Positions 26,622-32,074 of a DNA stretch of 46,054 nucleotides are shown piece after piece. How positions within the stretch are numbered: the stretch's first letter is position 1; the number at the start of each line of letters is the position of its first letter. The notes below the pieces were generated by a model, which did not search any database, had not been told where the DNA came from, and saw nothing but the letters and a program-made list of their open reading frames with translations. This DNA comes from Escherichia virus ECH1, in sequence record MN164484.2. One strand, written 5' to 3'. The position numbers were made by a program, and so were the translations under genes.

Positions 26622-27583
26622 CATTCAAAGTCTACACGCGAGAAGAGTTAAGCAACGAAGAGTACCACTCTGAAACTGATCACATCTCTGGCAGTTCACT
26701 AGTTGAGATTATCCAGGGTTCACCAGCAAAGTGGAAGTTCAAGCAGCTCAACAGTTGTAGCAAGGCTCTTAAGTTTGGCACATTAAGCCACTGCATGATT
26801 CTAGAACAAGATGTGTTCGATAAAGAATACCTTCGAGCAACAGACCTTGAAGCTATTGAGGGGTTAATTACAAGTCAGACCGCATTATCGGCAGCACTGA
26901 AAAAAGTTGGTGTAGCTGGCACGTCAGGGAAGGGCTATAGCGAGCTTGTAGAGATGATGTATCGCTCTGGTGAGGATTGGCCTATTAAATGGTTAATTGA
27001 GCAGCAGGAGAGCGCTCAGGCTCTTGTAGAGGGTAAGGAACTGGTAAGCGCAGCGGACTACGATAAAGTGGTGGCGATGCGTGAGGTTCTTTGCAACATT
27101 CCGGCTTATGATTCAATCGTTAACAGCGAGACAGCGCAGAAAGAGCTATCAATCTTCGGTGAGATTCTAGGTGTTGGGGTTAAGATCCGAATAGACCATG
27201 TTGATGTTGTTGATGGCGTAGTTCGGATCACAGATTATAAAACGACAGCAGACGCAAGCCCCGAAGGATTCGGTAAGTCTGCATTCTCTCACGGATACCT
27301 TGCAAAAATGGCTCTTCAGCGCGATCTGTTTGTGAAGGCATTCAACGAGAAGCGAAAGGTTGTTGTGGGTTTGCTGGCGCAGGAGAAGTTGGAGCCATAC
27401 CTTCCTATGAGGTACATATTGACTGACGAGCAACTTCGCATTGGAAGGCTACAGTATATTGAAGCGCTAGCTACTTACAAGAAGTGCAAAGAGCTTGATA
27501 TTTGGCCTGGTTATTCAAATGGAATTACAGAGCAAGAACTGATGATTCCTGATTGGGCAATTAAGCAGTATAAAGAGATCTAA
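26618..27583 (+). CDS. PD-(D/E)XK family exonuclease (RecE/lambda-Exo-like recombination exonuclease)
   Basis: IRIDHVDVVDGVVRITDYKT resembles a D-x(n)-D/E-x-K nuclease motif; sits beside the Erf-like and SSB genes. Confidence 0.55.
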   Translation: MTFKVYTREELSNEEYHSETDHISGSSLVEIIQGSPAKWKFKQLNSCSKALKFGTLSHCMILEQDVFDKEYLRATDLEAIEGLITSQTALSAALKKVGVAGTSGKGYSELVEMMYRSGEDWPIKWLIEQQESAQALVEGKELVSAADYDKVVAMREVLCNIPAYDSIVNSETAQKELSIFGEILGVGVKIRIDHVDVVDGVVRITDYKTTADASPEGFGKSAFSHGYLAKMALQRDLFVKAFNEKRKVVVGLLAQEKLEPYLPMRYILTDEQLRIGRLQYIEALATYKKCKELDIWPGYSNGITEQELMIPDWAIKQYKEI

Positions 27584-27655: not shown

Positions 27656-28306
27656 ATGCAAATTTCAGAATCATGCAAGTCAATTTTAAACGCTCTACAC
27701 ACTGCAAAAGCAATGTTTGCAAAGGCTGAGCGCTCTAAGCAGAACTCGCACCTTAAAAACAAGTACGCAACATTAGATGATGTTTTAGCAGCCGTGGAGC
27801 CTGGTTTAGATGAGTGTGGGCTTGTAATGTTTCAGAGCGTAATTGATAGTGAAGCAACTGGGCTGCTAAAGGTAGAGACAAAGCTATTCCACGCAGAGTC
27901 AGGGGAGTGGGTTAGCTTCTTAATGATTGTTCCAATCAGCAAGAATGATGCTCAAGGTTACGGTTCTGCGCTTACATATGCTCGACGCTACGGCATTACA
28001 GCAGCTTTAGGTCTTAGTCAGGCAGATGACGATGGTAATCTAGCAGCGAAAGGTGTTAAAGACTTTAAGCGTGAGCTTGAAAAGTGCAACACTCTTGATG
28101 AGCTTCGTAACGTCTGGAAAGAAGCCAAGCAATCACTAGATGCTGCTGGATGGAAGGTTTTCGAACCTCACATTATCGAGCGAAAGGCAGAGATTGAGGC
28201 TAACGCGGCAACTGGCTTCAACCCAGCTACGCCAAAGAAAGTTGCAGAAAAAAGTAGTACTCAAGAAAAAGTTGAAGTAGAATCTCAACAAATCGACACA
28301 TTCTAA
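27656..28306 (+). CDS. single-strand annealing protein (ERF family)
   Basis: N-terminal KNKYATLDDVL and GSALTYARRYGI are reminiscent of ERF-family signatures. Confidence 0.65.
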   Translation: MQISESCKSILNALHTAKAMFAKAERSKQNSHLKNKYATLDDVLAAVEPGLDECGLVMFQSVIDSEATGLLKVETKLFHAESGEWVSFLMIVPISKNDAQGYGSALTYARRYGITAALGLSQADDDGNLAAKGVKDFKRELEKCNTLDELRNVWKEAKQSLDAAGWKVFEPHIIERKAEIEANAATGFNPATPKKVAEKSSTQEKVEVESQQIDTF

Positions 28307-28353
28307 ATTAAACGGGGCTTCGGCCCCAAAATCAAACGAGAAGAGAGAATAAC

Positions 28354-28815
28354 ATGCACGTAATTACAGGTCAGATTCGCAAAGCTCCTTACACTAAAGA
28401 TGGTCAGAATGCAAAAGGTAACTGGAAAATGTACGCCATCGAGATGAGCGAATCATACAAGACTAAAGATGGCGAGCGTAAGTACAGTAATTACCGGATT
28501 ACGATGTTTGCCAGTGAGGCGCAGATTAGTTGGTATGATGAAGCATTTCAGGAAGGAAAAGTTATTTCTGTTAGTGGTGATTCATTGGCGGTTAATGAGC
28601 GTGAGCATAATGGAAAGGTTTATATTACGCTTGAGTTGCAGAATCCTCGATTGATGTTTAGCCAGCGCGGCAGTGAATTAGCTCCACAGCAACAGCGCCA
28701 GCAGCATCAGCAACAGCAGCGGCAGCAACCACAGCATCAAAGCCAGTTTGAAGACGATATTCCGTTTGCTCCTATTGGTCTTCAGTACGGTATGTCAAAT
28801 ATTTATGTACTATAA
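28354..28815 (+). CDS. single-stranded DNA-binding protein (SSB)
   Basis: OB-fold-like N-terminus, Gln-rich linker, acidic tip motif FEDDIPF; the motif is followed by 15 extra residues. Confidence 0.8.
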   Translation: MHVITGQIRKAPYTKDGQNAKGNWKMYAIEMSESYKTKDGERKYSNYRITMFASEAQISWYDEAFQEGKVISVSGDSLAVNEREHNGKVYITLELQNPRLMFSQRGSELAPQQQRQQHQQQQRQQPQHQSQFEDDIPFAPIGLQYGMSNIYVL

Positions 28816-29215
28816 AGTCTGTTTCAAATGTGGTGGGCTTAAGCCCATCACGGAGTTCTATAAACATAAAGCCATGGCTGACGTACGTGTAAATAAGTGT
28901 AAGGAATGCAATAAGGTTGATGTTAAATCAAATAGAAAATCAAAAATAGAATATTACAGAGAGTACGATAGAGAAAGTGGCAATAGACAGAAGGACGGTT
29001 ACGTTAAGGAGTATAGATCAAGAAACCCCATAAAATATAATTGCCACACGATTTTAAATAACGCTATAAGGGATGGTAAGATCAATAAAAAACCTTGCGA
29101 GGTTTGCGGGAATGATAAGGCGGTAGCTAATCATGATGATTACTCAAAACCAATGGATGTAAGATGGCTATGCCAAGCTCACCATATGCAATGGCACGCA
29201 GAAAACGGAGAATGA
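28805..29215 (+). CDS. HNH endonuclease-like zinc-finger protein
   Basis: CxxC pairs and C-terminal CEVCG...HDDYSKP...CQAHHMQWH motif; start overlaps the SSB 3-prime end. Confidence 0.55.
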   Translation: MYYKVCFKCGGLKPITEFYKHKAMADVRVNKCKECNKVDVKSNRKSKIEYYREYDRESGNRQKDGYVKEYRSRNPIKYNCHTILNNAIRDGKINKKPCEVCGNDKAVANHDDYSKPMDVRWLCQAHHMQWHAENGE

Positions 29216-29232
29216 TTAAACGGATAAAAGAA

Positions 29233-29252
29233 AAGGCCCCTTTCGGGGCCTT
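29233..29252. terminator. bidirectional terminator (AAGGCCCC-TTTC-GGGGCCTT)
   Basis: Hairpin with T-runs on both strands between convergent genes. Confidence 0.65.
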
Positions 29253-29254
29253 TT

Positions 29255-32074
29255 TTATGAAGCTGTATTTACCTGAAGATATGCACCATTAGTTGCACCA
29301 AACCATGCGTAAGCAGATCCGTAAGTTGTTGGGTTATCATTTAAGATGAAGTCACCCGCTCTAATTACGCACTTTTCTCCATATTTATCAGTTGGCCTTG
29401 CACTAAAACCATAATCAACATATCTAAAACCAACCTTCGTTACGTTATCGTTAAGAGGAAAAATCCGAAAGAAGCTAGAAGCCCTAAAGTCATTGTTCCT
29501 GAAAACGCCTCCAGTAAAGTTATCCATGTCAAACATAGTTGTTAAGCTTGCACCAACAGTATTCCTGAACTTGTTACCTTCGTATGTTGGAGAGATTACT
29601 TCATAGTCAACCCTCAACTGAATAAATCCCCCATCAATAATATTGTCCTTGACTATTGGATATTGCCCGCCGATTGCTAAGCCACCAAACCCAGGTGTAA
29701 ATTTGCAACTATTATTACTAAATATAGTGCCAACCCACGCCTGATTTGTAAGGTATGGTGCCTTAGTATCTGTCATGGTGTTCCCGGTGATAATCAATCC
29801 ATTCTTGGCCTGGATTCCCTCCTGGTAGCCCTGAATCGCTACGCCGCCACCAATCATAATGTTGCTGGATATAATAATGTTGCTCAACCCCTCATTAACA
29901 CCCCAATCACTTTCTGCATCATTTGTTATCAGTAAGTAGTGAGAAGAAGCCCTGCCAGTAGCGTCCGTAGTTATAATGCTTGTATTGCCTTTGCATATAA
30001 CATTGTTTGCCGCAAAAACCTCAACAAATATACCAGCACCTTCGTAGTAGTTATCCGTAACCGTTACGTTATTGCCAGCCGGGGTTATCCTTGACTGGAT
30101 AGATATTGGATAATAGAACTTGTTGGCGTGAGCGTAAGACATTCGGCTTCTCTCGGATATTGCATAATCCTCCGCGAAAGTATGCCATGCCCTTCCTGAC
30201 TGTTTTGTTGTGTTTCCTATAAACTCTGAGTAGTCACAGTTTCTTGTGATTAAGCAGTAGTTAGCGTTGTATCTGAAGCTTGAATTTCTAAGAGATACGA
30301 ATGCATTAGGTAAGCCATTAAGAGCATCGGCATTAACAAAGGCCCTCGAGGCATTAACCTCCATACCCTCGATCACAACTGATGCGCATCCTTCAACCAT
30401 AAAACCAAACCAGTCTTCTCTTGGTTTATGCTCTGTATCCGTTGGTTGGATTGAGTAATCTGAAAAGTCAGTATTCCAGTTGAGTCCGCTAGCTTTAAAT
30501 GTGCAATCTTTAAGCCCGAAAACAACCCTCTCGGGTGATGTGCTTCCAGAGATATCAATATCAACATCATTATTGGCAAAAATGTCAACAGTAAGTCCAT
30601 TGAGGAAGAATGCCGTTTGCCTTAACACTCTGTACTTATCATTGTACTGAACACCATCGGAGAATGAGACTTTCAGTCTTCCAGCGCTAAGTCTTACCTT
30701 CCTGTTTGTATTGTGACCAAGGTTTATACATGCCATAACCGAGGCGTTTGATTCATTAACTCCAGACACATCATGACCAGCCCATTCGGTATGGATATCA
30801 TCAACACCTCCCGTAAACCTAACCCAGCAACCATTTTCACCTGGTGATGTCTCACCCGCTCCGCTAAGGAAGCCTGGTAGCGTGGAATATGTACCATCAA
30901 ATGGAACTGTTGGGCTAAAGATGGTAACCCCATTGTGACTACTCTTGCTTACTGATGGATCCCAGTAAAACAAACCACCTCCAGAGTTTGCTCCAGAAAT
31001 ATAAGACCTGACATTTGCCAAGTTTCCATTCGTAGTTGGTTGCCGGATTAGTTCATAAATTGAATTAACTGAAGATAGCCCTAAATTACTCCTGGCAAGG
31101 CTTTTATCTTTAATATCAGAGAAATTCAATGATTTGTTGAAAGTCTCAGATTTTGAATAAACATCAAGTAAGCCCCTTACTCGCTGGGCGCTAGCGCCGC
31201 CAACCCGACTTCCTGATGCGACATAAAGCGCCTCTCTTGAATAGTAAGTTTTGCTTGGTGCCGTGCCAGTCTGAGTTAAATCAATCACCCTGTACGCATC
31301 ATCTGAGCCGGTAGATGCTGAAACTTGTATGTTCTTAACACCAGTAAGCCCCCTTGCTGACTTAACCTCAATCGCACAAAGTGCGCTATCGGAGTAGGTT
31401 GTATTTATCACCTCTGGAGCGTTGATCATTGCTGACTTTTGGCATAGGTATCTAGCCCCGGACTTGAAATCAAACGTATTCCAGTCAAGTTCTGTCAACT
31501 GAGGTGTATTCGAGCCACCAATACCAATATTGGCAAGAGTTACCAAAGTACCAGCGTCACCAGCATTATTAATTGCTTCAATTGTAGCGTCACGGGCAGC
31601 TGTTGTTGTGTTTCTTGCACTAACAGCAGTAGCAGCGCTATCTGCGGCGGCAATCTGGCTAGCTAAAGCATCCGCTGCTCCTTGCACTGACTGGCTTGCC
31701 AATTGCTCAAAGCGAGGCCAATCAAAAGAATCCTGACCAATGAAATCAATCAGGCTCTGAATGCTAGTTTCCCTACTCTGATAATAACGAAGTGTCTCCG
31801 CTACATTTTGAGCCAAACCCTGAACGCTAATCCCATCATGAGCAAGAATGGCATATCCAGTACCAGCAGGAACAGTTTCGCCATTTGGGTTATATACAGA
31901 CAATGAAGTGTCGCTGGTGATTTCAGAGATGGTGTAAATCTGCACAGGCTCTGTTTTGAATACAATTGTAGCACCAACACGGATTAGCGTTAGTGGCATG
32001 GTCCATTGAGTGCCAACACCAGTAACTTGACCGTTAGCTGCTAAACTGGCAGTTCCAGTATCATAAATTGCCAT
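29255..32074 (-). CDS. tail fibre/tailspike protein, possibly with a beta-helical depolymerase-like central domain
   Basis: 939 aa from ATG 32074; N-terminal fibre-anchor-like domain; long Asn/Gly/Ser/Thr-rich repetitive region. Confidence 0.55.
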   Translation of the reverse strand: MAIYDTGTASLAANGQVTGVGTQWTMPLTLIRVGATIVFKTEPVQIYTISEITSDTSLSVYNPNGETVPAGTGYAILAHDGISVQGLAQNVAETLRYYQSRETSIQSLIDFIGQDSFDWPRFEQLASQSVQGAADALASQIAAADSAATAVSARNTTTAARDATIEAINNAGDAGTLVTLANIGIGGSNTPQLTELDWNTFDFKSGARYLCQKSAMINAPEVINTTYSDSALCAIEVKSARGLTGVKNIQVSASTGSDDAYRVIDLTQTGTAPSKTYYSREALYVASGSRVGGASAQRVRGLLDVYSKSETFNKSLNFSDIKDKSLARSNLGLSSVNSIYELIRQPTTNGNLANVRSYISGANSGGGLFYWDPSVSKSSHNGVTIFSPTVPFDGTYSTLPGFLSGAGETSPGENGCWVRFTGGVDDIHTEWAGHDVSGVNESNASVMACINLGHNTNRKVRLSAGRLKVSFSDGVQYNDKYRVLRQTAFFLNGLTVDIFANNDVDIDISGSTSPERVVFGLKDCTFKASGLNWNTDFSDYSIQPTDTEHKPREDWFGFMVEGCASVVIEGMEVNASRAFVNADALNGLPNAFVSLRNSSFRYNANYCLITRNCDYSEFIGNTTKQSGRAWHTFAEDYAISERSRMSYAHANKFYYPISIQSRITPAGNNVTVTDNYYEGAGIFVEVFAANNVICKGNTSIITTDATGRASSHYLLITNDAESDWGVNEGLSNIIISSNIMIGGGVAIQGYQEGIQAKNGLIITGNTMTDTKAPYLTNQAWVGTIFSNNSCKFTPGFGGLAIGGQYPIVKDNIIDGGFIQLRVDYEVISPTYEGNKFRNTVGASLTTMFDMDNFTGGVFRNNDFRASSFFRIFPLNDNVTKVGFRYVDYGFSARPTDKYGEKCVIRAGDFILNDNPTTYGSAYAWFGATNGAYLQVNTAS

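Follow-up and report, generated by a model that had tools for sequence, protein, structure and literature searches.

Extension of the ssDNA-binding protein of Escherichia virus ECH1 beyond its DDIPF tip, a probable product of a mobile putative HNH homing-endonuclease cassette

Background

Free-standing homing endonuclease genes, such as those of the Seg and Mob families of T4 and those of the F-Tfl HNH enzymes of T5, are well known, as are the co-conversion and decay that go with free-standing homing endonucleases. In Aeromonas phage Aeh1, insertion of mobE splits nrdA, giving a "genes in pieces" ribonucleotide reductase whose two polypeptides reassemble. [quoted passage not shown] The present analysis concerns the ssb gene of Escherichia virus ECH1 (sequence record MN164484.2), whose complete 46,054-bp Drexlerviridae genome is the window referred to below, together with the gene downstream of it, which encodes a putative HNH-type endonuclease. 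The ssb product extends 15 residues beyond its acidic tip, DDIPF, and it is likely that this extension is the translated product of a mobile putative HNH homing-endonuclease cassette that has replaced the ssb stop codon.

The ECH1 locus resembles the T-even and T5 systems in having a small nuclease gene between or at the ends of conserved genes, sporadically present among close relatives, with flanking co-conversion (here of an ssb block shared with phage phiEB49), weak structure-occluded expression signals (here a hairpin), and frequent decay. It differs from them in that the cassette appears to be inserted inside a reading frame, right after the last sense codon, with a gain of 1–21 residues by the host protein, and in that the apparent target is a five-residue interaction motif in unrelated families rather than one orthologous gene; homing is here read from sequence. 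As with mobE of Aeh1, a free-standing HNH-type endonuclease lies inside the coding region of a DNA-metabolism gene and the altered product appears to be tolerated, but instead of being split the host protein is extended C-terminally by a conserved peptide that travels with the endonuclease. Like bacterial and phage proteins with the acidic C-terminal tip called SSB-Ct (DDDIPF), the ECH1 protein has an OB fold, a disordered Q/P-rich linker, and an acidic D-D-I-P-F, whereas it lacks a free alpha-carboxylate on the tip Phe, and the tip is strictly C-terminal in its relatives. Similar to the T7 pair, primase/helicases of Vequintavirinae and ICP1 end in ...D(T/I)PF, and the endonuclease family inserts at a primase/helicase gene too. 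No published description of this arrangement was found in the searchable literature, although absence there is no proof; relative to that literature, a family tied to a five-residue motif of unrelated genes, a stop-removing insertion, and a conserved peptide capping the SSB tip appear to be new.

The ssb gene and its C-terminal extension

The ssb gene (nt 28354–28815, plus strand) encodes 153 amino acids, comprising an OB fold (residues 1–106), a Q/P-rich disordered linker, the DDIPF tip, and the 15-residue tail. In a comparison over a 1.3-kb segment, the DNA of vB_EcoS_ACG-M12 (Guelphvirus, Braunvirinae) was 98.5% identical to that of the window and colinear with it. The product matched phrog_44 ("single strand DNA binding protein", E = 2.9e-31), while the Pfam SSB model gave 14.6 bits, under its cut-off. 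AlphaFold2 predicted a beta-barrel with one helix, i.e. an OB fold, for residues 1–106 (predicted local distance difference test, pLDDT, 80–93) and disorder for residues 107–153, with pLDDT below 30 for linker, tip, and tail. By sequence and predicted structure the ssb product is classed as an SSB.

The codons of the SSB-Ct-type acidic tip D-D-I-P-F occupy nt 28753–28767 (residues 134–138, plus strand) and are internal here. They are followed by the tail APIGLQYGMSNIYVL, with 15 codons at nt 28768–28812 and a TAA stop at nt 28813–28815, a plus-strand segment (28768–28815) that forms the left end of the insert described below and contains the endonuclease start codon. The open reading frame (ORF) product terminates ...QSQFEDDIPFAPIGLQYGMSNIYVL, the predicted C-terminal peptide of the unprocessed tailed SSB being ...FEDDIPFAPIGLQYGMSNIYVL; the tip peptide reads ...FEDDIPFAPIGLQYGKHRIYAL with the tail versus ...FEDDIPF without it. 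Thus, the claim of the original prediction that DDIPF is internal and followed by 15 extra residues agreed with the ORF, and so did the overlap with the next gene at 28805, since the ATG at this position lies 11 nt into the ssb end. An SSB-Ct is expected to have Phe as the last residue with a free alpha-carboxylate, but in this ORF 15 residues come after Phe138, the last of which are basic-hydrophobic (...IYVL).

Among 120 homologues of the window SSB, in which I136, P137, and F138 were invariant, the chain ended exactly at (D/E)IPF in 113 and a 15-residue tail was present in 7. These tails were APIGLQYGMSNIYVL (four sequences), APICLQYGKSKIYAL, ALFGLQYGKHRIYAL, and ATYGLQYGKHRIYAI (one each), and the tailed SSBs came from independent genomes, namely ACG-M12, SCS31, phiEB49, and metagenomic contigs. 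Five of the seven were followed by a small Cys-rich ORF with an 11-nt overlap, and the other two (loci L006 and L009) by internally deleted endonuclease remnants with the tail retained. Because independent genomes carry it, the extension is judged from these comparisons to be real, not a sequencing artefact or a one-off.

Insertion of a 458-bp segment in place of the ssb stop codon

In megablast/blastn comparisons, homology to three relatives lacking the endonuclease, Rogue1, C119, and T145P1, broke at nt 28766/28767, that is, at the last base of the Phe codon, and resumed at nt 29226/29227. The segment thus delimited (nt 28768–29225, plus strand, 458 bp) contains the 15 tail codons, a stop codon, the endonuclease gene, and 10 nt, and replaces the ssb stop codon. 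Endonuclease-free alleles have ...CCG TTT TAA (TGC)AAAAGATAAAGCCCC... at the junction, the sequence in Rogue1, C119, and T145P1 being ...ATT CCG TTT TAA (TGC)AAAAGATAAAGCCCCTTTCGGGGC. A terminator hairpin at nt 29231–29254, located by a terminator scan and the junction alignment, lies between the ssb/endonuclease unit and the convergent tail-fibre gene; it is present whether or not an allele has the endonuclease, and thus delimits the insertion site on the right.

The putative HNH-type endonuclease gene (nt 28805–29215, plus strand) encodes 136 amino acids and overlaps ssb by 11 nt. Its product has an N-terminal CxxC...CxxC zinc ribbon and the C-terminal pattern C98xxC101...N109-H110...C123xxxH127xxxH131. 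Among 120 endonuclease homologues, the invariant Cys/His pattern was compatible with an HNH enzyme having two zinc sites. PHROG matches were weak ("HNH" and "endonuclease VII"), and neither Foldseek nor a sequence search of the PDB with this protein gave a match. The start at 28805 is the only one keeping the N-terminal zinc ribbon, K4, C6, and C9 being invariant among the 120 homologues, and it is also supported by the phrog_2340 alignment, which begins at residue 3, and by the 136-amino-acid ECH1 protein in GenBank; from the sequence, 28805 is taken as the right start. In the RefSeq record of ACG-M12, the gene (D861_gp32; NC_019404, nt 2275–2616, corresponding to window nt 28874–29215) starts at an internal Met and loses the first CxxC of the ribbon, so this start (28874) is probably too far downstream; in the phiEB49 record, GeneMark called an upstream, overlapping endonuclease start.

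Association of the endonuclease family with acidic ...PF tips

The association was evaluated in 80 IMG/VR loci retrieved by two endonuclease peptide motifs alone, 77 of which were evaluable upstream. In all 77, an ORF with an acidic ...PF tip ended within about 100 nt of the endonuclease start. The native IPF-stop was kept in 17 loci, one extra residue was found in 41 (N in 29, S in 7, R in 2, K in 2, and D in 1), and 4–21 extra residues in 19, including 8 with a 15-residue tail. The upstream ORF was thus extended by 1–21 residues in 60 of the 77 loci, compared with 7/120 and 6/120 homologues in two SSB families. In the one-residue class, this endonuclease follows P0121 and P0238 (IPFN) and P0132 (IPFS); P0122, 97% identical to P0121, has an IPF-stop and then an unrelated gene. 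The family comprises at least 1702 clusters at 90% identity.

Conserved nucleotide motifs were observed 0–80 nt past the SSB stop in this one-residue class (IMG/VR L017–L091, e.g. L027, L029, L074, and L091). One, AAGTCCCTTTTAATT, is a near-repeat of the SSB-end sequence CCCTTTTAAT and forms the 5′ arm of a GTCCC...GGGAC hairpin; another, TAGAACGG(A/G)TCTATAATGG..., contains a -10-like box followed by a hairpin pairing with the endonuclease ATG. These motifs have the appearance of regulatory elements of the cassette.

In tblastn, a 22-residue query consisting of tip and tail gave matches in 229 phage records, and the tail was found on carriers from at least seven unrelated families (PF00436 SSB, phrog_44, gp2.5-like phrog_112, phrog_9002, phrog_2544, phrog_4477, and phrog_3284) as well as on a primase/helicase. 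In four carriers, a homologous endonuclease gene overlaps the carrier end by 11 or 29 nt: rV5 gp209, a two-OB SSB-like protein of 423 amino acids (phrog_4477, matching no Pfam family) with the tail APVGLQYGKSRIHAL; the GAP31 primase/helicase (L011, nt 512–2569; APIGLQYANHAIYAL); the canonical PF00436 SSB of mEp554 (SCVGLQYGKHRIYAL); and the SSB of morffagbaw (ASVGLQYGKHRIYAL). Among at least 120 stretches matching a degenerate tail pattern in the genome collection, one was genuine, a Sodalis prophage with tail and endonuclease.

Alleles with and without the insert were found among close relatives. Vequintavirus gp209 homologues, 95–99% identical, fall into two groups, one with tail and endonuclease (rV5, DrSchubert, MaxBurger, EmilHeitz, and others) and one ending ...FCDDIPF-stop before the same downstream terminator (AlexBoehm, JeffSchatz, RudolfGeigy, and others). 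A similar split was observed for the primase/helicase: GAP31 has tail and endonuclease, VLCpiM5b has the tail only, and VLCpiM5a and others end ...DTPF-stop, the tail-less sister phages being 87–94% identical in this protein and lacking the endonuclease. Presence/absence with nucleotide-precise boundaries was therefore seen in Drexlerviridae, Vequintavirus, and Seunavirus/Mydovirus. From sequence comparison, the acidic ...IPF coding motif is the only feature that the unrelated carriers appear to have in common, and this would allow the endonuclease family to pass from one SSB family to another, unrelated one and to reach even a primase/helicase. In addition, primase/helicases of Vequintavirinae and ICP1-like phages align with the GAP31 protein right to its ...D(T/I)PF end; these proteins themselves probably have an acidic tip of the SSB-Ct kind, comparable to the C-terminal tail of T7 gp4.

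Probable horizontal transfer of the ssb–endonuclease block

In 100-nt windows, ECH1 and phiEB49 (Lindendrivevirus, Rogunavirinae) shared 96–100% identity over approximately nt 28350–29250, with flanks at 55–75%. This block, which extends from ssb with its tail through the endonuclease gene to the terminator, is shared between two subfamilies. The window SSB was 86–91% identical to Rogunavirinae SSBs versus 58% to that of the Braunvirinae relative T145P1, and the neighbouring erf is of the Braunvirinae type. Such an identity pattern is expected from co-conversion of ssb during endonuclease acquisition, and the block of ssb, tail, and endonuclease was probably acquired by recent gene conversion from a Rogunavirinae-like donor.

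Proposed origin of the extension

A free-standing cassette (nt 28768–29225) would have been inserted directly after the terminal Phe codon, in place of the stop codon of the relatives, supplying 15 codons, its own stop, and an endonuclease ORF with its ATG inside the last tail codons. Insertion without the ssb stop codon would therefore produce the 15-codon tail, a cause that the original prediction had not seen. The endonuclease family seems to be specialised on genes ending in an SSB-type acidic ...IPF tip; judging from the feature common to the carriers, the enzyme may recognise the DDIPF-coding sequence, and the extensions may be self-immunity polymorphisms, since the DDIPF codons cannot change.

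No Shine-Dalgarno sequence was visible upstream of the endonuclease ATG; because of this and the 11-nt overlap, translation of the endonuclease is probably weak and coupled to that of ssb. About 25 nt past the start there is a hairpin that seems to be codon-selected, GTGGTGGGC-TTAA-GCCCATCAC (nt 28830–28851, plus strand), inside the 5′ part of the coding sequence in codons C-G-G-L-K-P-I-T. The 36-nt segment containing it folds at -16.2 kcal/mol, and none of 200 synonymous recodings was equally stable. A bias toward stable 5′ hairpins was found in the family, with 26 of 64 unique members in the 5% tail or below and with differing stem sequences, and in mEp554 the annotation places a predicted rho-independent terminator at the corresponding site. 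The hairpin is probably an attenuator of endonuclease expression.

Several observations weigh against the cassette as the origin of the extension. The endonuclease product matched no Pfam family, and the 17 loci with an unextended IPF-stop indicate that insertion does not always alter the protein. Many tails have no endonuclease or visible remnant downstream, especially those of the APIGLQEGRMFLHMI class and that of VLCpiM5b, so the tail could be native in some lineages and not strictly a part of the cassette. In a rough clustering by the unweighted pair group method with arithmetic mean, the tail-linked endonucleases did not group together, and purifying selection on a hitch-hiking peptide is left unexplained by the cassette model.

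With respect to the tail-only alleles, remnants were present after some of them: L006 and L009 keep internally deleted copies, L117, L119, and L137 keep the first eight codons of the endonuclease, and L134 keeps a fragment. No remnant was seen in VLCpiM5b or in most members of the QE class. In L117, L119, and L137, the tail ends in ...RIHALS or ...RIYALS and the next ORF begins with eight codons (MEKAESTH or MAKAGSTR) that match the N-terminus of the rV5-type endonuclease, but continues as an unrelated 106-amino-acid protein; another gene seems to have taken the place of the endonuclease here, the breakpoint coinciding with the tail end. Either the tail outlives the endonuclease, or it is native in some lineages and the endonuclease was inserted just after it.

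Selection on the tail peptide and its possible function

The tails conform to the consensus [AS]-P-[IV]-G-L-Q-[YE]-G-[KR]-x-x-[IL]-[YH]-[AMC]-[LIF] and fall into two classes, ...GLQYGKHRIYAL and ...GLQEGRMFLHMI. Proportions of synonymous (pS) and nonsynonymous (pN) differences were estimated by the Nei-Gojobori method for 40 unique tail sequences. In the SSB frame, pS was 0.75 and pN 0.31 for all sequences, and 0.81 and 0.32, respectively, for those found independently of the DNA search pattern, the overall range being 0.72–0.81 for pS and 0.31–0.40 for pN. For the first three tail codons of tail-only alleles the values were 0.62 and 0.10. No such asymmetry was seen in the other two frames (pS 0.41 and pN 0.40 in frame +1, the endonuclease frame; pS 0.23 and pN 0.46 in frame +2). 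Gly4, Leu5, and Gln6 were invariant or nearly so as protein, with 4, 6, and 2 codons used, respectively; for about half of the sample, the search pattern had partly imposed these three residues and Gly8, a bias that does not affect the remaining columns or the independent subset. These substitution patterns indicate that the tail is translated and is under purifying selection in the SSB frame, and because of this selection the peptide is probably not inert.

The docking pockets for SSB-Ct anchor the alpha-carboxylate of the terminal Phe via a "basic lip" of the partner protein (PMC10164576). Because canonical docking needs this free carboxylate, making DDIPF internal should weaken it, and the suggestion in the original prediction that partner binding would be altered is a reasonable one. 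It is conceivable, although we regard it as rather less likely than not to hold, that the tail is a selected functional short linear motif, a portable "tip-capping" module that the homing endonuclease spreads through phage SSBs and primase/helicases unrelated to one another and that would re-wire the choice of host or phage partners by the SSB via a masked tip or a second site. Likeness of the tail to a beta-clamp-binding motif, a PIP box, or a ClpX C-terminal degron was considered by eye, was unconvincing, and is not claimed.

Alternatively, the cassette may hold as the origin while the peptide itself is functionless, a read-through conserved by nucleotide-level constraints only, i.e. the endonuclease start, the ribosome-binding region, and the overlapping N-terminus. 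The endonuclease ORF indeed overlaps the last 4–10 tail codons and starts within them, either at an ATG in "IYA" or farther upstream at one in "QYG", so that part of the tail conservation is explained; moreover, a Gly codon can double as a Shine-Dalgarno element of the form GG(A/G), members of the QE class do not vary at any nucleotide of their terminal ATG ATC T(A/G)A, the tails of Drexlerviridae have substitutions where other tails are conserved (P to L or T, G to C, and K to M), and AlphaFold2 predicts the tail to be disordered. However, this does not explain the N-terminal part of the tail, as the best-conserved A-P-I-G-L-Q lies upstream of every possible endonuclease start and is encoded by 2–6 codons each, and synonymous sites are saturated with amino acids kept in the SSB frame only. 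A functionless tail is accordingly considered unlikely.

Alternative explanations of the locus

It was also considered that the endonuclease is not selfish but takes part in the work of the exo-erf-ssb recombination module, for instance as a resolvase or nickase, with the tail being a native SSB motif, e.g. a peptide on which this nuclease docks, and the adjacency to IPF reflecting operon order. The endonuclease gene always adjoins SSB-like genes, relatives are annotated as "endonuclease VII", and the tail, besides being under purifying selection, is retained in many contigs that lack the endonuclease. However, presence is sporadic among phages 95–99% identical, with nucleotide-precise boundaries, internal deletion or decay is seen in copies of the gene, at least seven unrelated families provide carriers, among them a primase/helicase outside any recombination module, a sharply bounded, near-identical block crosses phage subfamilies, and the copies in phages of the BASEL collection were annotated as "putative homing endonuclease" by Maffei et al. 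This explanation is regarded as improbable, somewhat more so than a functionless tail.

An intron or other recoding device, the removal or bypass of which would give a mature protein with DDIPF at its end, was suggested by the facts that phage HNH endonucleases are often intron-encoded and that the upstream exon frame commonly continues a few codons into an intron. An Rfam scan of nt 28300–29400 found no group I or II intron or other Rfam family above threshold, and a known RNA element was rejected on this basis. Furthermore, the endonuclease ORF takes up all but 47 nt of the insert (37 nt 5′ and 10 nt 3′ of it), tail-only alleles are 48-nt additions, too small to hold an intron, and the peptide-level selection indicates that the tail is translated; the probability left to such a device is very small.

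Finally, a sequencing or assembly frame error, with the true SSB ending at DDIPF, can be dismissed almost entirely on the comparative data: viewed alone, the extension is anomalous beside the 113/120 homologues that stop exactly at IPF, but the identical tail occurs in the independently sequenced ACG-M12, SCS31, and phiEB49 and in metagenomic contigs, diverged tails retain frame and length with synonymous changes, and the difference from endonuclease-free alleles is a precise 458-bp insertion, not an indel of 1–2 bases. Of the two possibilities left by the original prediction, a real extension or an unrecognised frame error, the former is therefore supported and the latter excluded. The alignment with related SSBs that had been proposed as a check recovered the same extension in 7/120 homologues; the original prediction had named such an outcome as a refutation, and what it refutes is the error and not the reality of the feature. 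The finding is considered real and, with the cassette as the preferred reading, explained in origin, not in function.

Implications

Few interaction motifs of bacteria and phages are as conserved as the SSB tip, which is believed to work only with a free C-terminus; here, a widespread natural element buries it under a conserved peptide in hundreds of phages. A homing endonuclease family targeting a short protein motif would, if confirmed, explain crossing between phage families. Natural capped and uncapped alleles at 95–99% identity, including those in the BASEL collection, are usable to test phage SSB tips in infection and defence triggering. Among the BASEL Vequintavirus phages, AlexBoehm (bas56_0085) and RudolfGeigy are tail-less, and DrSchubert, MaxBurger, and EmilHeitz have tail and endonuclease. 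Were the tip-capping idea true, sensing of tip-bearing phage SSB-like proteins by defence systems, e.g. DRT10, could change. Bas52_0087 has been described as a trigger of DRT10 (10.64898/2026.04.29.721553); it is presumably a tail-less allele of the rV5 gp209 family, Bas52 being RudolfGeigy (MZ501102), which carries such an allele. For annotation, an SSB with a C-terminal extension should not be "corrected" where a small Cys-rich ORF comes next.

Probable decay of the endonuclease copy and other features of the region

Between the window and ACG-M12, the endonuclease gene has 5 nonsynonymous and 1 synonymous changes; for exo these numbers are 7 and 43, and for erf 0 and 4. Two of the endonuclease changes are at near-invariant positions, G27V (nt 28883–28885) and H109N, the first His of an HH doublet (nt 29129–29131). 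Because of the 5:1 ratio and these changes, the window copy is probably decaying or inactive, and L006 and L009 would represent the next stage, in which an internal deletion has left the tail in place.

In related Drexlerviridae, unrelated HNH genes were observed in the interval from erf to ssb and also upstream of exo (C119, nt 1641–2135; L006, nt 301–789 and 2496–2999); those of L006 match Pfam HNH_3, and that of C119 is annotated as "HNH endonuclease" only. Judged from these gene positions, several endonuclease families share the recombination module as a hot spot.

Compared with ACG-M12, exo has 56 substitutions within 330 nt (nt 27064–27394), 43 of the 50 changed codons being synonymous, and the 3′ end of the tail-fibre gene (nt 29336–29623) has about 40, while erf and ssb are nearly identical. 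These clustered differences look like recombination patches from a third relative.

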